A stretch of DNA of 25,761 nt from Bacteroidales bacterium (GTDB taxonomy: Bacteria > Bacteroidota > Bacteroidia > Bacteroidales > VadinHA17): NCBI GenBank assembly GCA_046706585.1, contig JBJKPH010000463.1, positions 1-25,761 of the forward strand. Reading direction: 5' to 3'. Shown here in pieces: positions 3,671 to 21,875 of this stretch (position 1 is its first letter; each line of letters opens with the position of its first letter). A program made the position numbers and the translations under genes. The notes under the pieces were generated by a model that did not search any database, had not been told where the DNA came from, and saw only the letters and a list, made by a program, of their open reading frames with translations.

Positions 3671-4114
3671 ATGCACGGGATATATCCATATTTCATAAAA
3701 TTTCATGTGATATTCAGTGTAATATTCCTGATAACAATTGTATATATTTCAATCAGGTCGATAACCGGCTGGATTAAAAAGAGGGAATATGGCAAAACAG
3801 AAGACCGCCTAAGAAAGATCTATTTATACCTGCTGTATACCGACCTGCTGCTTGGAATTATTCTTTACTTTTTTCTTCAGAAACCGGCCGAGACAATCAC
3901 CATGGAACAGGCCATGACCTTTTCAAACCTCAGGTTCTGGGCAATAAGACATTTCTCCAATGTAGTCTTTGTGGTGATCCTTTGTACAACCGGTAATTTA
4001 CTTATCAGGAGCACTACATTATCAGGGAAAAAATTCAAGTACACTGTCTTTTATTTCGGGATATCTACTGTAATTATTATCATTTCGGTCGCCCTGTTTG
4101 CCCTAAGAAAATAA
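3671..4114 (+). CDS. Four-TM membrane protein resembling a Bacteroidota family often labelled cytochrome B-like; function unknown
   Basis: 147 aa, four hydrophobic segments, DLLLGIILYF and LRFWAIRH motifs; starts 3 nt after the kinase stop. Confidence 0.7.
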   Translation: MHGIYPYFIKFHVIFSVIFLITIVYISIRSITGWIKKREYGKTEDRLRKIYLYLLYTDLLLGIILYFFLQKPAETITMEQAMTFSNLRFWAIRHFSNVVFVVILCTTGNLLIRSTTLSGKKFKYTVFYFGISTVIIIISVALFALRK

Positions 4115-4553: not shown

Positions 4554-6683
4554 TTAACTCAGTGCTTCCAGCACTCTTTCGGGGGTCATGGGCAGCTGCC
4601 ACAGTCTTGCCCCGGTTGCGTCGCAGATAGCATTTGCCACCACTGCGCCCATATTTATTATTGCAGGCTCGCCTCCGCCCTGGGGTGGCTCATCCTGTTT
4701 ATCCATAAATACCGATTCTATTTTTGGAAGCCATGAGAATCTCGGAAGTTCGTATGTGTCAAAATTGTTCGTTTTGATCATTGCCCCTTCATACTCGATA
4801 TCCTCGCTCAGGGTATAGCCCATACCCATTGTCACACAACCCTCGATCTGGAGTTTTGCTCCCTCGGGGTTAACCACCAGGCCCATATCCTGTACACACA
4901 CAACCCTGATAACCTGAACATGTCCTGTCTTCCTGTCAACTTTTACTTCGGCCATCAGCGCCACATAGGTTCCGGCATCTATTCCGCACGCAACACCCAC
5001 TCCATGATCAGCAGGCAGGTTATCCCTCTTCCCGAACTTTTCATTTACGGTTTTTACCACTCCGGTCATCTTCTCATCTTTCAGGTTCATCAGACGGAAT
5101 TTGACAGGGTCGATACCCACTTTCCGGGCCATTATATCGATCTGCGATTCACGCGCAAACGAGTTTGTATTATTGGCAGGAGCTCTCCATGCCCCCACTG
5201 CGAACGGGTGGACTGAAGACCTTCCGCTCCAGCCCGGTCCGTGTACTTTTGTCACATGGTTCGGGATATCATAGAATTGCTGTGATCCCCTTTCGCCTGC
5301 GCAAAAGACGCCATAATCCCAGTAAACGATCTTTCCTTCTTTGGTCACACCCGAACTGATCTTCACAACACCTGCAGGCCTGTAAGTATCATAAAAGAAT
5401 TCTTCCTCCCTGGTCCATGCAACCTGCACCGGTTTTCCAGTGATCTTTGCCAGCCGCGCTGCTTCAATAGCCTGTCCTCCTGCGCTTTTGCCGCCGAACC
5501 CGCCTCCGACAAAGATCTGCATTACATGTACATTTTCGGATTTAAAACCCAGGGCATTTGCCACCTGGTCTTTTAACGGGAACGGGGTTTGCGTTGATGC
5601 CCAAACCGTAGCTTTCCCGTTTTCAACAACAACTGTTGCGGTATGCGGTTCCATAGGAGAATGAGCTACATACCCGTCGAGGTACTTACTTTCAACAAGT
5701 ATTTCAGATTCTGCCCTTCCTTTGCCGAGATCTCCCCCGTTTGCTACAGAATCTCCGTCGGGAGCATTCTTCAGGATATAATCGAAAATTGTTTTCTCAT
5801 TTATCTCCGAGGATGGTGTATCAAAGTCGGCTTTTATCATTGTAACCGCCCCGGCTGCCACGTCGGGAGATTCGTGAAGGACAGCAATCAGGCCCTCCTG
5901 ATTCACCACTTTAAGACCATCAATCTTTTCTACTGCCGACAGATCAACGCTGACCAGCTTTGAGTCGTGTGAAGGTGGTCTGAGGAGCCGGGCATACAAC
6001 ATCCCCGGCAGGTGAATATCTCCGGCATATTTTGCCTTCCCTGTTACTTTCTCGTGTGAGTCGCGGCGCATATAGTCTTTTCCCATTACCCTGAGTTCTG
6101 AAGGAGCTTTAACAGGTACATCGCCATCAATGATTTTTGCAATTTTCTGTCCTTTTGCCAGTTCGGCATAGGTAGCCATTTTAGCGGGTTGTCCTTTAAC
6201 AGATACTACACCGTCGACGGCCTGCAGTTGTTCCCCGGGCACCTTCAGTTTATCAGAAGCTAGTTTAATCAGGGTGGCTCTTGCTTCGGCTCCGGCAGCC
6301 CTCAGTGGTGGACCAAAAAATCTGGTCGACATCGATCCGAAAGTTCCCATGTCCCATGGGCAAAGATCGGTATCGCCCATAACCATTTCTATATTTTCGA
6401 CCGTTACATCGAGCTCATCTGCCAGCATCTGGGCCAGTGAGGTAATAACCCCCTGCCCCATCTCGATCTTTCCTGTAAACAGTTTGACCATACCCGTTTC
6501 TTCCACGAGGAGGTAAGCATTAAAGTCGGAAGGCATGCCACGCTGGGCCATAAGTTCACTGCTGCCGACTGTAAAAGCCACTACTATCCCACCACCGAGA
6601 TATTTAAGAAAATCCCTCCTGTCGATATCGGCGGGTGATTTTATGTCTTTAAAATCCTTTTTCAGGTACCTGTCGTTTTTCAT
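4554..6683 (-). CDS. Xanthine dehydrogenase family molybdopterin-binding subunit (IorB-like) with Tat signal
   Basis: RRDFLK twin-arginine motif; GKIEMGQG, DLCPWDMGTFGS, KVTGKAKYAGD, GGGFGGK and the catalytic GGGEP motif. Confidence 0.92.
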   Translation of the reverse strand: MKNDRYLKKDFKDIKSPADIDRRDFLKYLGGGIVVAFTVGSSELMAQRGMPSDFNAYLLVEETGMVKLFTGKIEMGQGVITSLAQMLADELDVTVENIEMVMGDTDLCPWDMGTFGSMSTRFFGPPLRAAGAEARATLIKLASDKLKVPGEQLQAVDGVVSVKGQPAKMATYAELAKGQKIAKIIDGDVPVKAPSELRVMGKDYMRRDSHEKVTGKAKYAGDIHLPGMLYARLLRPPSHDSKLVSVDLSAVEKIDGLKVVNQEGLIAVLHESPDVAAGAVTMIKADFDTPSSEINEKTIFDYILKNAPDGDSVANGGDLGKGRAESEILVESKYLDGYVAHSPMEPHTATVVVENGKATVWASTQTPFPLKDQVANALGFKSENVHVMQIFVGGGFGGKSAGGQAIEAARLAKITGKPVQVAWTREEEFFYDTYRPAGVVKISSGVTKEGKIVYWDYGVFCAGERGSQQFYDIPNHVTKVHGPGWSGRSSVHPFAVGAWRAPANNTNSFARESQIDIMARKVGIDPVKFRLMNLKDEKMTGVVKTVNEKFGKRDNLPADHGVGVACGIDAGTYVALMAEVKVDRKTGHVQVIRVVCVQDMGLVVNPEGAKLQIEGCVTMGMGYTLSEDIEYEGAMIKTNNFDTYELPRFSWLPKIESVFMDKQDEPPQGGGEPAIINMGAVVANAICDATGARLWQLPMTPERVLEALS

Positions 6684-7162
6684 AGCTCGTTCCCTCCTTT
6701 TATTTCTGCTGCTGCAGTCTGGATTGCCTTAACAACTCTCAGGTGTGATCCGCAGCGGCAAAGATTGTCATCCATCCCTTCGATTATCTCATCATAGGTC
6801 GGATCGGGATTCTTAGCCAGAAGACCGTAGGCTGTCAGAATCATACCGGGCGTGCAATAACCGCATTGTAAAGCATCATTGTCGACAAATGCCTGTTGCA
6901 GGAAATGAAGCTCGTTGCCATTAGCAAGGCCTTCAATAGTTCGAATATTTTTCCCTTCAACCTCGCTCATCGAAACCGTGCATGATCTTACCGGTTCCTT
7001 GCCGATAAGTACAGTACATGAACCGCAAAAGCCCATTCCGCAACCAAATTTCGTTCCGGTAAGGCCAAAGTTATTTCTCAATACCCACAACAGGGTATAT
7101 TCCCTGTCGAGGTTAAACTCCACAGGTTTTCCATTCAGGTTAAAACGAATGATCTTAGCCAT
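6680..7162 (-). CDS. (2Fe-2S)-binding small subunit (IorA/CoxS-like)
   Basis: GTKFGCGMGFCGSCTV...C and QCGYCTPG...NLCRC cluster motifs; ATGA overlap with the Mo subunit. Confidence 0.95.
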   Translation of the reverse strand: MAKIIRFNLNGKPVEFNLDREYTLLWVLRNNFGLTGTKFGCGMGFCGSCTVLIGKEPVRSCTVSMSEVEGKNIRTIEGLANGNELHFLQQAFVDNDALQCGYCTPGMILTAYGLLAKNPDPTYDEIIEGMDDNLCRCGSHLRVVKAIQTAAAEIKGGNEL

Positions 7163-7766
7163 GTTTTTTAATATTATTTAGTTCTTTTTCATACTCTTCC
7201 CTGATATCTATATCTTTCAGTATATCTTCTTCTTCCACTTCCACTTCACAGGTCTCTTTCCTGTGCCTCTCCATGAAGGTTTTAAGATTCTCTTCATCGT
7301 GCATTGACAGTATTTCCCCGAAATAATCCCTTCCTATCAACACCGGGTGTCCCCTCCGTCCTTTGAAAACAGGAACCAGGATCCCCCGGGCAGATGCTTT
7401 TTCACATCCTACTATTTTATCGATCACTTCGCTGGTTATCATTGGCTGGTCGCCCAGCATCACCAGGGCCGAACCGGCCTGCTGCGGAAGCGCCCCGATA
7501 CCTTTTTTCACGGATGTGAACATCCCCTTTTTGTAAGATTCATTGTATACTTTCACGGGGTCATGGTCCAATAGAGCCTGTTCTATTCTTTCGTGACCGG
7601 AACCAGTAACCACCACTGTTCCGCCGACGGCAGACCTGGCACATTCGTCGACCACTTTCCCGATCATTGTTGTATGACCAAAAGGTAAAAGCAGTTTCTG
7701 CTTTTTCATTCTCGTTGACTCTCCGGCAGCAAGAATAACTGCCCATGTTTTTACCCTGTCCCTCAT
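7155..7766 (-). CDS. mocA: Molybdenum cofactor cytidylyltransferase (MocA-like nucleotidyltransferase)
   Basis: ILAAGESTRM, KLLLPF, LGDQP, GHPVL and DID motifs; located inside an Xdh-family operon. Confidence 0.8.
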   Translation of the reverse strand: MRDRVKTWAVILAAGESTRMKKQKLLLPFGHTTMIGKVVDECARSAVGGTVVVTGSGHERIEQALLDHDPVKVYNESYKKGMFTSVKKGIGALPQQAGSALVMLGDQPMITSEVIDKIVGCEKASARGILVPVFKGRRGHPVLIGRDYFGEILSMHDEENLKTFMERHRKETCEVEVEEEDILKDIDIREEYEKELNNIKKHG

Positions 7767-8809
7767 CCGTCTGACTCTTTGCGTGTAACAATCAGCTCGG
7801 CAGCAATACTAATGGCAATCTCTGCAACAGTTTTCGAAGGGATCGGCAGGCCGATCGGGGCGTGTACCCTGTCGAACTGATCTTCTGTGGCCCACCCCAT
7901 TTCAAGGAATCTGTTCCTGATAAGAGAGATCTTGCGCTTGCTTCCTATCATTCCAATATAGGCAGCACCAGAAGCGATACAGTGCCTCAGTGCCTTTGCA
8001 TCGCCTGTATGTGTGGTCGTCATTATTACTATATAGGTGTTATCAGTAATTCTGAGCGCTTTCACCGCCTCCTCCAAATCCCCGACTATTATCCCTGCTG
8101 CATCAGGGAATCTTTCTTTATTTGCATATCCTTCCCTGTCGTCGATCACCGTAACATTAAAATCAAGGAGTGCTCCGATATGAGCAAGCGACTGTCCTAT
8201 GTGTCCTGCTCCCACTATTACAAGCTCAGGTGTGGGGTTAAGCGGCTCGACAAAAATCAATCTGTCATCCTTTTCCAGCAACAAGGGGTTCCTGCTATCA
8301 ATTGCCCCGTTAACCAGTGCTTCAAATCCGTGTATATCCGAACCGGCAACCAATGATTCCATATTGTCGCCCGGATACCATTTCCTTTCCACAACAACCT
8401 TCTCATTGCTTATACCGGAGATACTGCTTACAAGTACTCCCCACTGTCCGGCTGAAAGGGAACGGCCGATCGTTGCAAACAATTCTGAATCACCGGAGCA
8501 TCCCGGATCGAGCAGCACCAGGACCTTCCCTCCGCAAATTGCACCGTCAGCTTTGGCTATATCGGAATTCAGTTCATATGTAAACAGTGTGGCACTGTCA
8601 TTTTCAGACATTTTTGCAGCTTTGGCCTGCGATTCAAATTCAAGAACACCGCCGCCCAGCGTTCCGGCAACAATTTCCTTTCCTGAAAAGATTGCAGCCG
8701 CACCCGGTACCTGCGGAGACGATCCCGAGGTTTTCAGGATTGACCCTAAAACATACGACCCCTGAGGGTCATCCCCGGCTGTAAGATGTTTGATAAGTTT
8801 ATTTAACAT
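7763..8809 (-). CDS. xdhC: XdhC/CoxI-family molybdoenzyme maturation factor
   Basis: GSSPQVPGA, GTLGGG, ICGG in the N-domain; VGAGHIG, VIDDR, YIGMIGSKRK, HAPIGL, EIAISIAAE in the C-domain. Confidence 0.9.
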   Translation of the reverse strand: MLNKLIKHLTAGDDPQGSYVLGSILKTSGSSPQVPGAAAIFSGKEIVAGTLGGGVLEFESQAKAAKMSENDSATLFTYELNSDIAKADGAICGGKVLVLLDPGCSGDSELFATIGRSLSAGQWGVLVSSISGISNEKVVVERKWYPGDNMESLVAGSDIHGFEALVNGAIDSRNPLLLEKDDRLIFVEPLNPTPELVIVGAGHIGQSLAHIGALLDFNVTVIDDREGYANKERFPDAAGIIVGDLEEAVKALRITDNTYIVIMTTTHTGDAKALRHCIASGAAYIGMIGSKRKISLIRNRFLEMGWATEDQFDRVHAPIGLPIPSKTVAEIAISIAAELIVTRKESDG

Positions 8810-8992: not shown

Positions 8993-9415
8993 ATGAAAAA
9001 GACGATTCGCATATCAGCCTATATCCTGCTGACGCTCACCATTATATCCCTTTCCGGATGTGAAAAGGACAGAATGACCCTGCTCACAGATGGTCAGTGG
9101 AATTTCAAGAATCTTACAACCGATAGCGACAACAGCGATATAAAGACTCTTATTGCACTTGGCAAAGCAGTTCTGGTAGACGGAACCCTGGATTTCTCTG
9201 ATGACGGAACCTATGAGATGGCTTCTCCTCTTATTGATACAGAAACAGGGACATGGAAACTCACCGGGGAAACACAGCTGCTTAGAACACCCGATGGAGA
9301 AACAAATGGAGTTCCGGCTTCCATTGACAAACTCAAGAAATCAGAACTGGTTTATATTGAGACTTACGTTTATAACGATATAACATATTCAGCGATATAT
9401 ACCTGGGTAAGGTAA
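8993..9415 (+). CDS. Lipoprotein with a lipocalin-like beta-barrel; function unknown
   Basis: Lipobox LSGC, LLTDGQWNF (G-x-W), LDFSDDGTY and GTWKL motifs. Confidence 0.7.
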   Translation: MKKTIRISAYILLTLTIISLSGCEKDRMTLLTDGQWNFKNLTTDSDNSDIKTLIALGKAVLVDGTLDFSDDGTYEMASPLIDTETGTWKLTGETQLLRTPDGETNGVPASIDKLKKSELVYIETYVYNDITYSAIYTWVR

Positions 9416-10788: not shown

Positions 10789-11229
10789 TCAGCCTTTTTT
10801 CTTAATCTCCCGGGTAAAATTGGTGAAATACCTTATGCTTGACAGAAACAGGGCCAGGCCTATTGCAAGGTAGATAACGGACAAGTATTTACGTGGAATA
10901 TGAGAATGTCTCAGGGTTATTCCAAGGGTCATCATTACCGCCACCAGGAAGTAGCTTTTCCATGACATAAAAGCAAAAGCACAGGGTCTTGGATCCATTG
11001 GCCCGATCCTTCCCAGGTTTTTATCAACAACTCTCAGGAATCCAAACCGGTGGACAACCAGGGCAAAAACAATTCCTGCCAGAAAAAAGTACCATACAGG
11101 TTCAGAATAAGAAATCAGCCATACGACGGCCATTGAGCACATCATTATTCCAATGGCGCTCCACAGGAATCCGGCGATCAGCAGCAGAAAGGATTTTTTT
11201 ACGGACGGTTTGAACCGGGAAAGATCCAT
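10789..11229 (-). CDS. Conserved hypothetical four-TM membrane protein (start re-called to MDLSRF..., 146 aa)
   Basis: Four hydrophobic segments; the 33 extra N-terminal residues of the ORF track span a hairpin and look non-coding. Confidence 0.75.
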   Translation of the reverse strand: MDLSRFKPSVKKSFLLLIAGFLWSAIGIMMCSMAVVWLISYSEPVWYFFLAGIVFALVVHRFGFLRVVDKNLGRIGPMDPRPCAFAFMSWKSYFLVAVMMTLGITLRHSHIPRKYLSVIYLAIGLALFLSSIRYFTNFTREIKKKG

Positions 11230-11236
11230 ATTATCT

Positions 11237-11275
11237 AAATTTAAAGAACAGGCCCGTTTTTTCCCGGGCCTGTTC
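11237..11275 (-). terminator. Intrinsic terminator-like hairpin downstream of the M16 peptidase
   Basis: 11-bp perfect stem GAACAGGCCCG/CGGGCCTGTTC (11246-11275) followed on the minus strand by TTTAAATTT. Confidence 0.6.
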
Positions 11276-11352
11276 CATGTTGTCTGTTTTTGCTTCCCCC
11301 TCCCTTTTTCAGCCGGCGGACACGGCAAGAGGAAAGTCTTTGAATTTCAATT

Positions 11353-14805: not shown

Positions 14806-15726
14806 ATGGAAAATACCAGCATGAACAATACAGGAAGTGACAATACCGGACAGGCCGGACAAAAGAAGAAATCACCTGTCGGTCTGTTTGTTCTGGCAGG
14901 AATCCTGGCCATTGCACTCATTGGAATGATAGTTTCATATTTTATCCAGAAGAATAACATGATAGAAATGGAACAGATACTTACAGAGGAAAAGGATTCG
15001 CTTACACATGAGCTGGTTCTTATGATAGAGGCTTACGACACCCTTAAATCAGACAATGACACACTGAATGCCCAGCTGACCATTGAACAGGAGAAAATTG
15101 AAAGGCTGCTGGCAATAAATGCCTCCAATGCCCAGGTTATAAGAACCTATAAGAAAGAAATCACGACCATGCGTGAGATAATGAAAAGCTATATCGTGCA
15201 GATAGATTCACTTAATACACGAAACAAGATCCTTGTAGCCGAGAACTCTCAGATAAAGGAACAGATAACAAAGGTCGAGAGGTCGAACCAGGAGCTTTCA
15301 CGAGCAAGGGAAGAGCTCTCTTCAAAAGTTGAAATAGCACGTGTTATCCAGGCAAAAGATATTGTTCCCCAACCCCTTAACAAGAAAAGGAAAGAGACCG
15401 ACAGGATTGATCGAATGGTCAACCTTATGGTCTGTTTTACTCTTAGGGAAAATCCGATTGCAGAGGCTGGTAAAAAGACAGTATTAATGAGAGTTTTAAG
15501 GCCCGACGGACTGGTTGTTACCACATCGCCGGACAATCTTTTCGAATATAACGGAGAAACGCTTATATACACTGAAAGCAGAACTGTTGACTATCTTAAT
15601 CAGGATGTCGAACTCTGTATCTATGTTGACAATAACGGAGATTTTATCGAAGGAAATTATACTGTTGAACTTTACCTTGAGGGATCGCTTATCGGTACGG
15701 GAGAGTTTATCCTCAAGTCGCGTTAG
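14806..15726 (+). CDS. Hypothetical single-pass membrane protein with a long coiled coil and a beta-rich C-terminal domain
   Basis: TM after a KKK motif (VGLFVLAGILAIALIGMIVSYFI), heptad-rich helix over roughly aa 50-175, C-terminal beta-strand pattern (VCFTL, YTVELYLEG). Confidence 0.75.
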   Translation: MENTSMNNTGSDNTGQAGQKKKSPVGLFVLAGILAIALIGMIVSYFIQKNNMIEMEQILTEEKDSLTHELVLMIEAYDTLKSDNDTLNAQLTIEQEKIERLLAINASNAQVIRTYKKEITTMREIMKSYIVQIDSLNTRNKILVAENSQIKEQITKVERSNQELSRAREELSSKVEIARVIQAKDIVPQPLNKKRKETDRIDRMVNLMVCFTLRENPIAEAGKKTVLMRVLRPDGLVVTTSPDNLFEYNGETLIYTESRTVDYLNQDVELCIYVDNNGDFIEGNYTVELYLEGSLIGTGEFILKSR

Positions 15727-17307: not shown

Positions 17308-17757
17308 TTATACTTTTTTTAATGGTATTTTGTCTATCCTTCTCTTATGCCTTCCTCCGTCGAAAGGAGTCAGCAAAAAAGTTTTAACGATCAGGATAGC
17401 TTCAGGTCCTGAAATGAACCTGCCCGGGAGAGAACAAATATTTGCGTCGTTATGAGCTCTGGCCAGCCTGCTGATATCTTCATTCCAGCATAATGCAGCT
17501 CTTATACCCTGGTATTTGTTCGCAGTAATATTCATACCATTACCACTTCCACATATTGTTATCCCAATATCATATTTGCCGCTTTCGACAGCCCGTGCCG
17601 ACGGATGCGCATAATCAGGGTAATCAACACTCTCCTCTGAAAAACACCCGAAATCCTTAACTTCGTAGCCCTGATTAATAAGAAAATCCGAGATTTCTTC
17701 TTTAAGTCTGAATCCAGCATGGTCGGACGAAATGGCTATTTTCTTGATATTTAACAT
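17308..17757 (-). CDS. rpiB: Ribose-5-phosphate isomerase B
   Basis: SDHAG, SVDYPD, ICGSGNG, ANKYQGIRAA, ARAHNDAN, FDGGRHKRR. Confidence 0.95.
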   Translation of the reverse strand: MLNIKKIAISSDHAGFRLKEEISDFLINQGYEVKDFGCFSEESVDYPDYAHPSARAVESGKYDIGITICGSGNGMNITANKYQGIRAALCWNEDISRLARAHNDANICSLPGRFISGPEAILIVKTFLLTPFDGGRHKRRIDKIPLKKV

Positions 17758-18283
17758 TTTGTGGTTTTAAGTACATATTAACATAAATATACCAACAAAA
17801 ATATCGCTATCTGATCAGAAATTGAAATTTTTTGACCCGTAAAACAAAAACAATCTGTAATGGTAAAATGTTTATTCTTTGGAAGACTATATGTAAAAGA
17901 TACAGAATGTCACAATTTGTGAATAACCTGTTATTCCAACTCTTGAAAAATCATTAATTATTTCCGTATTACAGGAGAAGTAAAATTTCTTTAATTGTCA
18001 ACACAACTTTTTATTAGATAATATCAAATATTAAACCTTCTTTCAACATCAAAAACATTAATTTTGTCATTACCTCTATCTTAACATTCAGCAATGAACA
18101 ATTGTTAATAATAGCGGTAATACCCTCTGGATAAAAACGGTATAATTTTTGAACTGTTGATAACCTGTTTTAAGAATTTTAATATACAATATTACAAGAC
18201 AAATCATATTTTTCTTCCAACACTTTCAACAGCATATAAACATCATCATATATAAGATTTATACTTAAATAATAATATTTCAG
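17758..18283. other. Candidate chromosomal replication origin (oriC)
   Basis: Gene-free and AT-rich, with DnaA-box-like 9-mers: TGTGAATAA 17918-17926, TTGTCAACA 17995-18003, CTTTCAACA 18040-18048, TGTTAATAA 18103-18111, TCTGGATAA 18126-18134, TGTTGATAA 18155-18163, CTTCCAACA 18214-18222, CTTTCAACA 18223-18231; AT-rich tract 18232-18283. Confidence 0.7.
17796..17803 (-). promoter_or_regulatory. -7 element (TATTTTTG) for rpiB-rrf2-hemW
   Basis: TAnnTTTG match 38 nt upstream of the rpiB ATG. Confidence 0.5.
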
Positions 18284-19279
18284 ATGTTAAAAACTGCTCC
18301 AGATTTATATAAGGGATATATCAATGAAAAAATTGATCCTTCAATTGATATAAAGGAGGAAATTAGCAAACTGAGGAAAGAAAAGAATGCAGTTATACTG
18401 GCTCATTATTACCAGACCGGAGATATACAGGACATAGCAGATCATGTTGGAGACAGTCTGGCTTTGTCGAGAAAGGCAGCTGAAGTAAAAGCCGATATTA
18501 TTCTTTTTGCCGGAGTGCATTTTATGGCCGAAACAGCAAAACTTCTCTCACCTGATAAAAAAGTACTTATTCCCGATCTGAATGCTGGTTGTTCTCTTGC
18601 TGACTCGTGCGATACAAATGAATTCAGGCAATTTGTTGAGGAGAATCCGGGGCGCACTGTAATAACTTATGTTAATTCAACTGCAGAGATAAAAGCATTA
18701 AGTGATATAATTTGTACTTCTTCAAATGCTTTCAAGATAGTTGAATCACTTCCGGAAGACGAAAAACTGATTTTTGCACCCGACAGGAACCTGGGAAATT
18801 ATATTAAGAACAGGATAAGCAGGGATATGCTTGTTTGGAACGGTGCTTGTCATGTACATGAGGAATTTTCACTTGAAGAAATAGTTAAACTAAAAAAGGA
18901 AAATCCTGATGCCGGCATAATTGTACATCCTGAATGTGAACTTCCTGTAAGGATGGTTGCCGATTTTATCGGATCTACAGGAGCGTTGCTGAAATACGTC
19001 ATAAAGAACGAAAAGCAGAAATATATCGTTGGAACAGAACCCGGTATAATACACCAAATGAAAAAATCATGTCCCGGCAAAATATTCATTCCGGCTCCGC
19101 CAAAGGACTCAACGTGTGGATGCAGTGAGTGTAATTTTATGAAACTTATAACTTTGGAAAAGATTTATAATACTCTGAAATTTGAACAGCCGGAAGTGAT
19201 ACTTGATAAAAAACTGATTGAAAAAGCAGCAAAACCAATTTGGAGAATGCTGGAGATGTCAGAGAAACTGGGTATTTAA
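18284..19279 (+). CDS. nadA: Quinolinate synthase A
   Basis: AVILAHYYQ, GDSLAL, AGVHFMAETAK, AGCSLA, YVNSTA, CTSSNA, CHVH, HPEC, GSTG, GTE, CSECNFM. Confidence 0.97.
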   Translation: MLKTAPDLYKGYINEKIDPSIDIKEEISKLRKEKNAVILAHYYQTGDIQDIADHVGDSLALSRKAAEVKADIILFAGVHFMAETAKLLSPDKKVLIPDLNAGCSLADSCDTNEFRQFVEENPGRTVITYVNSTAEIKALSDIICTSSNAFKIVESLPEDEKLIFAPDRNLGNYIKNRISRDMLVWNGACHVHEEFSLEEIVKLKKENPDAGIIVHPECELPVRMVADFIGSTGALLKYVIKNEKQKYIVGTEPGIIHQMKKSCPGKIFIPAPPKDSTCGCSECNFMKLITLEKIYNTLKFEQPEVILDKKLIEKAAKPIWRMLEMSEKLGI

Positions 19280-19283
19280 TATT

Positions 19284-20843
19284 ATGAAGCAGAGATCCGT
19301 TATATTATTGATTTTATTTCTTTTTATACCACTGTTCGCAGATGGACAAACAGCACAGCTGACCGACGGATTTCATGTTTTCAAGTATCCAAATGGTTCA
19401 ATATCAAGCGAAGGGAATATAAGAAACGGTAAACCTGATGGTTACTGGAAAAGTTATTATGTTACAGGAGTCCTGAAATCGGAAGGGAAAAGAAGAAATT
19501 ACTTACTTGACAGTGTATGGATCTTTTATACTCAAACAGGAGATACACTGGAGAAGATACAGTATCTGTACGGTAAAAAAAGTGGTTATTATTACAGGTA
19601 TAAAAGAGATAATATTTATGGACTGTATATCTGGTCAAGGGAATTATTTGTAGGAGATAAACGGGAAGGTCGTGCATATCTTTATTATCCTGATGGTGCA
19701 GTAAAACAAACAATCCCATATTTTGACGGAAAGAAGCAGGGCTTGTCGAAAGAGTATGATAACAACGGCATGATTATTACTCTGTATGAATATAATAATG
19801 ATTTCCTTATATCAAGGGAAAAAATAAACAGAACAGATGCAGAAGGATTAAAGCAGGGAGACTGGAAAGAGTTTTATGATAACGGTAATATAAAAGCTGA
19901 GATGACCTACCGTGATGATAAATTGCACGGGTATTACAAGGAGTATAATGAAAAAGGTATTCTTACCCTGACAATGCTTTATGACGACGGGAACCTTGTT
20001 GAGGATAATGTTTCTGATGATCCTGAAATTGAGATTGTTAACAGGTATGATGATCAGGGCAGGCTTATATACAGTGGTCCGTACAAACAGGGCACGCCTG
20101 TAGGGATCCACCGTGAATACAATCCTTTGGACGGAACTATTACCGGATCCTATGTCTATAATGATGAAGGAGTAAAAGTTTCGGAGGGTATTGTGAACGA
20201 AGCCGGAGAAAGAACAGGCAAATGGAAGGATTTCTATCCTGAAGGCGGAGTTAAGGAAGAGGGTGAGTATATTGATAACAGGAGATCAGGAACATGGAAG
20301 TTCTATAGCCGGGAAGGAAAAGTAGTACAGTCGGGTGGATACAGGAACGGAAGGGAAGATGGTGTGTGGGATTGGTATTACGATGACGGATCATTACTAA
20401 GGGAAGAGGAATACTATCAGGGAAGAAGAGATGGAAATTACATTGAATATTCAAAGGAGGGAGAGATAATAAGTAAGGGTCAGTATGCAGATAGTGAAAA
20501 GAACGGTGAATGGATCACAAGTGTTGGCGATCACAGTGAAGAAGGAAACTATATTATCGGGCTCAGAGATGGTTTGTGGAAATATTTTGACAGTGATGGG
20601 AATATTACTTTTAAGGGAAATTACGTCCAGGACAACCCCGATGGATATCAGACACTATATTTTGAGAATGGCAAGGTAAAGGAAGAGCGTTACTATGTTA
20701 TGGGCATTAAGCAGAGAACCTGGAAGAAATATGATGAAGAAGGAAATGTAATTATGACAATTTCTTATCGCGACGACATTGAAAGAAGAATAAACGGTAT
20801 TAGGATCAACCTGCCAGAAAGTGATGTTAAACTGATAAAATAG
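19284..20843 (+). CDS. Secreted MORN-variant (MORN_2/YwqK-like) repeat protein (start re-called to MKQRSV..., 519 aa)
   Basis: Signal peptide then many ~24-aa repeats of the form G-x-W-x-x-Y-Y-x-x-G-x4-G-x-Y; ATG 4 nt after the nadA stop. Confidence 0.85.
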   Translation: MKQRSVILLILFLFIPLFADGQTAQLTDGFHVFKYPNGSISSEGNIRNGKPDGYWKSYYVTGVLKSEGKRRNYLLDSVWIFYTQTGDTLEKIQYLYGKKSGYYYRYKRDNIYGLYIWSRELFVGDKREGRAYLYYPDGAVKQTIPYFDGKKQGLSKEYDNNGMIITLYEYNNDFLISREKINRTDAEGLKQGDWKEFYDNGNIKAEMTYRDDKLHGYYKEYNEKGILTLTMLYDDGNLVEDNVSDDPEIEIVNRYDDQGRLIYSGPYKQGTPVGIHREYNPLDGTITGSYVYNDEGVKVSEGIVNEAGERTGKWKDFYPEGGVKEEGEYIDNRRSGTWKFYSREGKVVQSGGYRNGREDGVWDWYYDDGSLLREEEYYQGRRDGNYIEYSKEGEIISKGQYADSEKNGEWITSVGDHSEEGNYIIGLRDGLWKYFDSDGNITFKGNYVQDNPDGYQTLYFENGKVKEERYYVMGIKQRTWKKYDEEGNVIMTISYRDDIERRINGIRINLPESDVKLIK

Positions 20844-20852
20844 CGATCCCCT

Positions 20853-21875
20853 ATGGGAGACCAGATTAACCTGAGAAAAGAACCGATATCACAGACAGAT
20901 ACGGAGTTTGAAAAAAAGCTGAGACCACTCTCTTTCGGGGATTTCAACGGGCAGAACAGGATCGTGGAAAATCTCAGGGTTTTTGTTACAGCTGCAAACC
21001 AGAGAGAAGAGGCACTTGATCATGTTCTCCTTCACGGACCTCCGGGGTTGGGAAAGACTACTCTGGCAAACATTATTTCAAATGAGCTGGATGTGGGACT
21101 GAAAGTAACATCCGGTCCGGTGCTTGACAAACCAGGTGATCTTGCCGGGCTTCTGACATCACTTGAGGAGGGGGATGTTCTCTTTATCGATGAAATACAT
21201 CGCCTGAGTCCTGTTGTGGAGGAGTATCTATACTCGGCCATGGAGGATTACCAGATTGATATTATGATTGACAAGGGGCCCAGTGCCAGGTCTGTACAAC
21301 TTACCCTGAACCCTTTTACACTGATAGGAGCAACAACCAGATCGGGTTTGCTTACCAGTCCTCTGAGGGCCAGGTTCGGAATAAAAATGCACCTTGAATA
21401 TTATGATACAGAAGTTCTTAAGGGAATAGTTAAGCGTTCTGCAGGAATTCTTGATATATCTATCGATGATAATGCTGCCCGGGAGATTGCATACAGGAGC
21501 CGCGGAACACCAAGGATAGCAAATGCTTTACTCAGAAGGGTCAGGGACTTTGCCCAGGTGAAGGGAAACGGGAATAGTGATATAGATATTACACGATATT
21601 CACTTGAGGCCCTTAATATCGATAAGCACGGTCTGGATGAGATGGATAACAAGATACTGAATGTAATAATTGAGAAATTCAAGGGAGGCCCGGTCGGACT
21701 AAACACCATTGCCACTGCAGTAGGTGAAGAAAGCGGTACTATTGAGGAAGTTTATGAGCCATTTCTTATTAAGGAAGGTTATATCAAAAGGACACCGCGT
21801 GGCAGGGAGGCTACTGAAAATGCTTATAAACATCTTGGAAAACATAAATTAGGAGATACAGGTTTATTGTTTTAA
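20853..21875 (+). CDS. ruvB: Holliday junction branch migration helicase RuvB
   Basis: [15 protein letters not shown] Walker [10 protein letters not shown] Walker B, GATTRSG, RGTPRIA, YEPFL, RTPRGR. Confidence 0.98.

Follow-up and report, generated by a model that had tools for sequence, protein, structure and literature searches.

The chromosomal origin of replication (oriC) of Bacteroidetes commonly lies far from dnaA (PMC4755523), and the indicator-gene table of Ori-Finder 2022 contains no Bacteroidota-specific gene. Pelliciari et al. 2021 (PMC8287927) list, in their supplement, unwinding modules of origins catalogued in the DoriC database. The origin of Cytophaga hutchinsonii, predicted in DoriC and verified by means of oriC plasmids able to replicate (Xu et al. 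2012, cited in PMC3531139), is the only experimentally confirmed Bacteroidota origin that we found cited; it belongs to another class and its listed box, TTATCTAAA, differs from the boxes described below. Here we analyse a window of 25,761 nucleotides, which is the entire contig C463 (25.8 kb) and the longest of the 501 contigs of a Bacteroidales metagenome-assembled genome (MAG; 2.87 Mb, 85% complete), and in particular the 526-bp gap 17758-18283 that separates the divergent genes rpiB and nadA. Judging from the relatives of its NadA, the organism belongs to the uncultured Bacteroidales. We propose, with a probability of about 0.88, that this gap is the chromosomal oriC of this Bacteroidales bacterium. 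The proposal is made because of the synteny of the locus, the cumulative GC-skew minima of its relatives, its DnaA-box motif, its orthology to DoriC origins, the layout of its unwinding module and the changes found in DnaA. An initial annotation of the window, made from its letters, had already read the gap as a candidate oriC, a reading that the skew minima of relatives, the conservation of the gap and its DoriC orthologs support.

Orthology to catalogued origins

The module listed for Prevotella ruminicola 23 (Prevotella/Xylanibacter; ORI93030288), whose DoriC origin is itself a prediction, was matched exactly in six Xylanibacter/Prevotella genomes. In each of them it directly precedes nadA and, in the one locus checked, it extends to the inferred nadA start. 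Its elements follow the same order as those of the window: two adjacent boxes, a short spacer, top-strand trios beginning ATCATA and an AT-rich tract. It also holds a box with A at position 6 (hereafter A6), TTATCAAGA. It differs in having no rpiB opposite within 8 kb, in the prevalence of boxes with C at position 6 (C6; 7 versus 3) and in a DnaA with Ser435. The modules of Chitinophaga pinensis DSM 2588 (ORI93020100) and Niastella koreensis GR20-10 (ORI95030423) were located in ten loci of Chitinophagaceae, at 55-85 bp upstream of nadA, and share with the window the layout of tandem boxes, spacer and trios. These origins belong to another order; in contrast to the window, position 6 of their boxes is canonical in most cases (TTTCCACA, TATTCACA), their trios read 3'-GAT TAT CAT-5' and their DnaA has Thr435. 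Since modules of DoriC origins stand upstream of nadA in these genomes, the gap of the window can be taken as the ortholog of catalogued, themselves predicted, origins. An origin adjacent to nadA and remote from dnaA is thus already catalogued and described, so that the locus brings little that is new in this respect, and our literature search found nothing naming nadA as an origin marker. Apart from the variant spelling of its boxes, it would be an ordinary origin of a known kind, which leaves the picture of bacterial initiation unchanged. What novelty remains is the possible covariation of DnaA residue 435 with box position 6, considered below.

Conservation of the gap and the promoter alternative

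In the window the gap has a GC content of 0.25, compared with about 0.41 for the contig, and holds no open reading frame (ORF) longer than 41 amino acids; the coordinates, the base composition and the ORF scan agree with its first description as gene-free and AT-rich. A search of Rfam for non-coding RNAs and riboswitches gave no match in the gap at E<=1, and a terminator scan of the same stretch found none. In 41 genomes searched, from the bacterium's own family and order, 19 nadA loci were cut out, namely its own and 18 of relatives from several families. In all 19, rpiB and nadA diverge from an intergenic stretch that measures 390-670 bp and has 13-31% GC, and the pair recurs in 13 further named Bacteroidales/Bacteroidia MAGs. 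The comparison with DoriC and the synteny around nadA, both suggested in the initial annotation as ways of checking it, therefore came out in its favour.

Seven sequences of the family were aligned (alignment A1). Most of the gap, which evolves rapidly, could not be aligned, and the conserved blocks lie in the 250 bp nearest to nadA: a head-to-head pair of boxes at 18092-18111, a 13-mer at 18139-18151, the box TTATCAACA at 18155-18163 and an abutting pair of boxes at 18214-18231. Two operons diverge from the gap and need promoters within it. The gap could accordingly be merely a divergent promoter/operator region for the rpiB-Rrf2 operon and nadA, its 9-mers being the operator of a transcription factor such as Rrf2, which is encoded in the rpiB string, or a regulator responding to NAD. 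The nearly invariant 13-mer GGTATAATTTTTG is promoter-like: judged by eye, it is one position off the Bacteroides -7 promoter consensus, TAnnTTTG, and it may belong to the nadA promoter or bind an accessory protein of the origin. A sigma-70 scan, in which Bacteroidetes promoters were not modelled, yielded nine promoter-like sites in the gap versus 5.2 +/- 2.4 in shuffled sequences, an excess that is not significant. However, a promoter region explains neither the minimum of skew over 400 kb at several orthologous gaps nor the switch in gene orientation there (see below). The repeated motif agrees with the DnaA box at seven of its nine positions, and the module stands beside nadA even where rpiB is lacking, in Prevotella and the Chitinophagaceae, and is there listed as oriC. 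Moreover, one gap can hold promoters as well as an origin, so that the evidence for promoters excludes nothing. We consider it unlikely that the gap is a promoter region and nothing else.

GC skew and gene orientation in relatives

Whole-genome skew could not be computed from the 501 contigs of the genome itself, hence we turned to relatives whose long contigs include the gap, and computed the cumulative G-C in a 400-kb span with the locus at its centre. The minimum fell inside the gap in G013:C5 (297,570 for a gap at 297,537-297,928) and in G043:C1 (322,439 for a gap at 322,125-322,620), and 0.5 kb from it in G041:C3 (963,997 for a gap ending at 963,487). The contigs of these three relatives are longer than 1 Mb. 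Three minima within 0.5 kb of the gap in 400 kb are not an artefact of centring, because the minimum of a random walk favours the ends of the window over which it is computed. In G042:C6 the minimum was 3.5 kb away (477,393 for a gap at 480,857-481,275), the skew being strongly positive from the gap on, and in G025:C20 it was 4 kb away (263,773 for a gap at about 259,300-259,900). The skew minimum that the initial annotation expected at this place was consequently recovered in three relatives and displaced by kilobases in two others.

On all four large contigs analysed, the shift in skew holds within plus-strand genes and within minus-strand genes taken separately; it is thus not an effect of gene strand. 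Genes are directed away from the gap on three of these four contigs, in proportions of 58-63% to its left and 63-79% to its right. The polarity at the gap is that of an origin and not of a terminus.

The displaced minima could be accounted for by an origin a few kilobases from the gap, the box cluster then being a datA- or DARS-like site that titrates DnaA or has a regulatory role. The skew of G031, which is flat over the 30 kb before the gap, is also compatible with this view. Cumulative minima, however, drift by kilobases with the local strand of genes, and those of three genomes lie in the gap or at most 0.5 kb from it. In addition, in four of four relatives the motif TTAT[CT]AACA is densest at the gap within the whole region of 320-400 kb, and the gap has the complete layout of boxes, trios and AT-rich tract. 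We therefore hold a nearby origin to be very unlikely. A replication terminus is most improbable: a change of sign by itself marks either end of a replichore, but the cumulative G-C curve has its minimum here, the skew being negative to its left and positive to its right as for an origin with G-rich leading strands, the genes diverge from the gap and DoriC places oriC at the orthologous site.

We also considered that the origin might lie beside nadA throughout the phylum. This was rejected for one flavobacterial assembly, the chromosome of a Polaribacter MAG (G044:C1, possibly misassembled), in which the skew, on sparse sampling, switches elsewhere. Its sign changes at ~0.45-0.75 Mb and ~1.6-1.7 Mb, and no switch coincides with dnaA (1.137 Mb) or nadA (2.335 Mb). 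The origin of this Polaribacter may lie elsewhere, or the assembly may be rearranged.

Density of DnaA-box-like sites

Sites were scored in bits with a position matrix of the lineage, built from 31 non-redundant orthologous gaps. In the gap of the window 11 DnaA-box-like 9-mers were located (Table 1), including all those named in the initial annotation (TTATTCACA, TTGTCAACA, TTATTAACA, TTATCAACA and two copies of CTTTCAACA), and 7 of them score at least 8 bits. In 1000 Markov-1 shuffles of the gap the number of such sites was 1.06 +/- 1.05, and none of the shuffles reached 7. With the lineage matrix, the gap is the joint densest 500-bp window of the assembly. The 500-bp stretch tied with it (C150:6301) and the one with the highest count of E. 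coli boxes (C285:6301) are both inside coding sequence and were discarded as origins. Three sites of the gap have at most one mismatch to TTATCCACA, where the rate in the genome would give 0.17 in 526 bp, and only 7 loci of the 2.87-Mb assembly reach three such sites.

It is true that A-rich variants of the box are likelier by chance at 25% GC and that comparable counts occur in two further windows of the assembly. That the 9-mers are chance occurrences in very AT-rich DNA, within a gap of no special function, is nonetheless highly improbable in view of the shuffles, of the 12-fold excess of TATTAACA over the 31 orthologous gaps, of the conservation of box positions in the alignment and of the coding nature of the competing windows.

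Several of the sites are arranged in pairs or repeats. The two boxes of the head-to-head pair, CAATGAACA and TTATTAACA, are separated by 2 bp and form a near-palindrome (I13). A 15-nucleotide direct repeat (D4), TGT(G/T)(A/G)ATAACCTGTT, occurs at 17918-17932 and 18155-18169, each copy holding a box, and 'ATTAACAGG' was found in 10 orthologous gaps for an expectation of 0.2. The recognised unit may thus be longer than 9 bp, or a composite of a box and a half-box. Most orthologous gaps have the tandem pair [..AACAn][TATTAACAG], at a distance of 50-80 bp upstream of nadA.

Box spelling and the DnaA recognition helix

The initial annotation had noted that only one 9-mer fits the E. coli consensus TTWTNCACA, which holds for TTATTCACA alone, and that most others have A at position 6, suggestive of a lineage-specific DnaA specificity. 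Over the 31 orthologous gaps, the 8-mer TATTAACA (box positions 2-9) was observed 60 times for 4.9 expected, TATCAACA 13 times for 1.35 expected and TATGAACA 10 times for 1.3 expected; TATCCACA and TATTCACA were each observed twice, for 0.39 and 1.35 expected, respectively. C6 forms of the box are rare in these gaps. After refinement, the matrix gives tTAT[T 0.58, C 0.24, G 0.16]AACA[A/G]. On these counts A at box position 6 is a real trait of the lineage, as first suggested, with the refinement that T is preferred to C at position 5. Published lists derived from DoriC give TTATTAACA for Odoribacter and TTTTCAACA for P. gingivalis, scored there as mismatched E. coli boxes, and we found nothing in the literature that identifies TTATTAACA or TTATCAACA as a DnaA box of Bacteroidales.

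DnaA sequences were aligned to E. coli domain IV (PDB 1J1V). The positions of DnaA that contact bases are 399, 423, 432-435 and 438-439, among which 435, 438 and 439 are variable (PMC5043019), and the helix 434-451 reads TnCACA, position 6 included (PMC5742627). In the DnaA of four related Bacteroidales, P423 is replaced by A or Q, R432 by K and T435 by A; R399, D433, H434, L438 and H439 are kept. Residue 435 is Thr in Chitinophaga and Niastella and Ser in Pedobacter and Xylanibacter, so that Ala is not phylum-wide. The four Bacteroidales with Ala435 have 5-10 A6 boxes and 0-1 C6 boxes. Chitinophaga (Thr) has 2 A6 and 8 C6 boxes and Xylanibacter (Ser) 3 and 7, respectively, and the composition is mixed in Pedobacter (Ser; 4 and 1) and Niastella (Thr; 3 and 2).

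In these sequences A6 probably accompanies changes of the recognition helix, namely Ala for Thr at position 435 together with those at 423 and 432. The covariation of residue 435 with box position 6 at the nadA origin is suggestive only. A stronger proposal would be that the DnaA of Bacteroidales prefers TTATTAACA and TTATCAACA to TTATCCACA due to Ala435 (with A/Q423 and K432), and that box and initiator co-evolved at the nadA origin across Bacteroidota, C6 being kept with Thr or Ser435. We advance it tentatively, as somewhat less probable than its negation. It is weakened by the size of the comparison, nine genomes in which the link between residue 435 and position 6 is confounded by phylogeny and GC content. 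In five relatives, the 600 bp upstream of dnaA contain only 1-3 variant boxes, so that autoregulation gives no independent support for a reading of this motif by DnaA, a point that also counts against the identification of the gap as oriC. The region upstream of dnaA was also considered as an alternative origin and rejected, no dense box cluster being present there in these five relatives.

Lineage-specific boxes are known from other bacteria, such as the cyanobacterial TTTTCCACA, the Thermotoga 12-mer and the epsilonproteobacterial T5 (PMC10225481, PMC5043019). These cases have in common with ours that the box consensus and the residues of DnaA helix 5 shift together within a lineage. They differ in the change itself, which in the window is that of C to A at position 6, within the TnCACA core.

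Predicted unwinding module

According to the rule given for basal unwinding systems (PMC8287927), a box with at most 2 mismatches, or a tandem pair of boxes, is followed by a spacer of at most 16 bp and then by (NAN)x3, three or more trios on the proper strand. With the box spelling of the lineage, the module 18214-18283 fits this rule, which is permissive; the proximal box departs from the E. coli motif at 3 positions. The last box is separated by a spacer of 10 bp (18232-18241) from a run of candidate DnaA-trios whose period-3 A's are invariant in alignment A1. The sequence ATCAT(C/T)AT recurs in most orthologs and in the module of P. ruminicola, which likewise opens with 3'-TAG TAT GAT-5'. 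At the level of sequence, an AT-rich unwinding element would also be present: of all 40-bp duplexes in the gap, that at 18249-18289, shortly behind the tandem boxes, is the least stable (-38.2 kcal/mol, for a gap mean of -45.6). The module abuts the nadA ATG at 18284, and occupies the same place in Prevotella and the Chitinophagaceae.

Judging from this layout, DnaA would bind about ten variant boxes tTAT[T/C/G]AACA distributed over 17775-18231. The tandem pair 18214-18231 would act as the platform from which a DnaA-ATP filament is seeded onto the three trinucleotide repeats at 18242-18250. This filament would open the least stable AT-rich tract, 18251-18283, against the start codon of nadA, and forks would depart both ways, each in the direction in which rpiB or nadA is transcribed. 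For DnaA binding, the assignment of the trios and the site of unwinding, we infer the steps from sequence.

A similar arrangement is known from the oriC of Bacillus subtilis (PMC6669920, PMC8287927), in which a pair of boxes (DnaA-boxes 6/7) serves as platform, trinucleotides with A in the middle are repeated on the strand bound by DnaA and an AT-rich tract adjoins them. The B. subtilis origin differs in that it adjoins dnaA, has boxes of the TTATCCACA type and 3'-GAT-5' trios and was tested experimentally, whereas the module of the window is predicted from its sequence.

Several points weigh against the identification of the gap as oriC. The 25.8-kb contig allows no genome-wide test of skew, and its own cumulative minimum, found at 18,300, has the divergent genes as a confounder. 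Over 20 kb, a replication gradient in read coverage would amount to less than 1%, too little to be measured. Among the relatives, besides the minima of G042 and G025, 3.5-4 kb off, G031 and G002 are only broadly consistent and G027 has no usable skew. The trios read 3'-TAG-5' instead of the consensus 3'-GAT-5', only the central A being conserved, and the (NAN)x3 rule is loose. Lastly, dnaA is missing from the bacterium's own assembly, which is 85% complete.

With regard to this last point, the sole match to Bac_DnaA in the assembly scores 23 bits, in an ORF of 242 amino acids (G000:C416:1140-1439) which could encode an Hda-like or other AAA+ protein and not DnaA. The true dnaA of this MAG appears to be unassembled. 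A full DnaA is encoded in all nine relatives examined. It is from relatives that the remoteness from dnaA, part of the first reading, can be judged: there dnaA is located on another contig than the gap or, in G041, on the same contig 591 kb off.

Relevance for fragmented genomes

Taken together with the Chitinophagaceae, the Bacteroidales loci would make nadA, or in this family the rpiB/nadA pair, a reliable marker of oriC, applicable even to fragmented MAGs whose skew cannot be computed. The motif TTATNAACA would detect such origins better than the E. coli box, and an origin anchored in this way would improve metagenomic estimates of growth from peak-to-trough ratios. The occurrence at one origin of C6 boxes with Thr/Ser435 and of A6 boxes with Ala435 would moreover constitute a natural experiment on the reading of TnCACA by the recognition helix.

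Features of the gap and neighbouring genes

Table 1. Features of the rpiB/nadA gap and its flanking genes (positions in the window; scores from the lineage matrix)
Feature	Position	Strand	Score (bits)	Remarks
rpiB (ribose-5-phosphate isomerase B), left flank	17308-17757	-		Pfam LacAB_rpiB, 1.3e-56
Candidate oriC	17758-18283	.		Gene-free, 25% GC; orthologous gap at the cumulative GC-skew minimum of relatives
Box-like site ATATTAACA	17775-17783	+	6.7	
Box-like site ATACCAACA	17789-17797	+	8.5	Kept in the closest relatives; 'ATACCAAC' aligned in 5 of 7 sequences (A1)
Box TTATTCACA with CCTGTT extension	17918-17926 (repeat copy 1, 17918-17932)	-		Only match to TTWTNCACA
Weak box TTGTCAACA	17995-18003	+	5.3	Two mismatches to TTATCCACA
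Box CTTTCAACA	18040-18048	+	8.1	AACA core invariant (A288-A291 of the 7-sequence alignment A1)
Weak site ATCTTAACA	18078			One of the 11 sites
Box CAATGAACA	from 18092	+	10.1	Left half of the head-to-head pair 18092-18111
Box TTATTAACA	18103-18111	-	10.3	Right half of the head-to-head pair
Site TTATCCAGA	18126	-		At most one mismatch to the E. coli box, yet outside the lineage matrix
13-mer GGTATAATTTTTG	18139-18151	+		12 of 13 positions invariant in seven family members (A1 columns 382-394)
Box TTATCAACA with CCTGTT extension	18155-18163 (repeat copy 2, 18155-18169)	-	14.0	Top score; one mismatch to TTATCCACA; conserved in A1
Box CTTCCAACA	from 18214	+	6.9	First of the abutting tandem pair 18214-18231
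Box CTTTCAACA, second copy	18223-18231	+	13.3	Second of the abutting tandem pair
Candidate DnaA-trios ATCATCATA (top strand)	18242-18250	-		Bottom strand 3'-TAG TAG TAT-5', three trios
Proposed duplex-unwinding element, AT-rich	18251-18283	.		Ends at the nadA start codon
nadA (quinolinate synthase), right flank	18284-19279	+		Pfam NadA, 4.8e-121

The two genes flanking the gap form a divergent pair. rpiB, which reads away from the gap, is the first gene of a string comprising rpiB, Rrf2 and a radical SAM gene. To the right of the candidate oriC, nadA, a gene for a 541-amino-acid MORN-repeat protein and ruvB follow head to tail on the leading strand (18284-21875). Annotation of the window genes with Pfam revealed no dnaA, dnaN or gidA, as had been stated at first. 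Counts of Asp codons (GAT:GAC), offered in the initial annotation as partial support for a strand switch, were reproduced for the plus-strand gene at 14806 (6:9) and for ruvB (19:4); that of the minus-strand pheS had to be corrected from 16:6 to 15:6.

Four ORFs of the window (14806-15726, 3671-4114, 8993-9415 and 10789-11328; 140-306 amino acids) had no Pfam match at the thresholds used. Finally, a cluster of four minus-strand genes at 4554-8809 encodes a molybdopterin-binding oxidoreductase subunit, a 2Fe-2S subunit, a MobA-like nucleotidyltransferase and an XdhC-type chaperone. Its GC content is 46-51%, for ~40% in the remaining contig, and from this higher GC the cluster could have been horizontally acquired.

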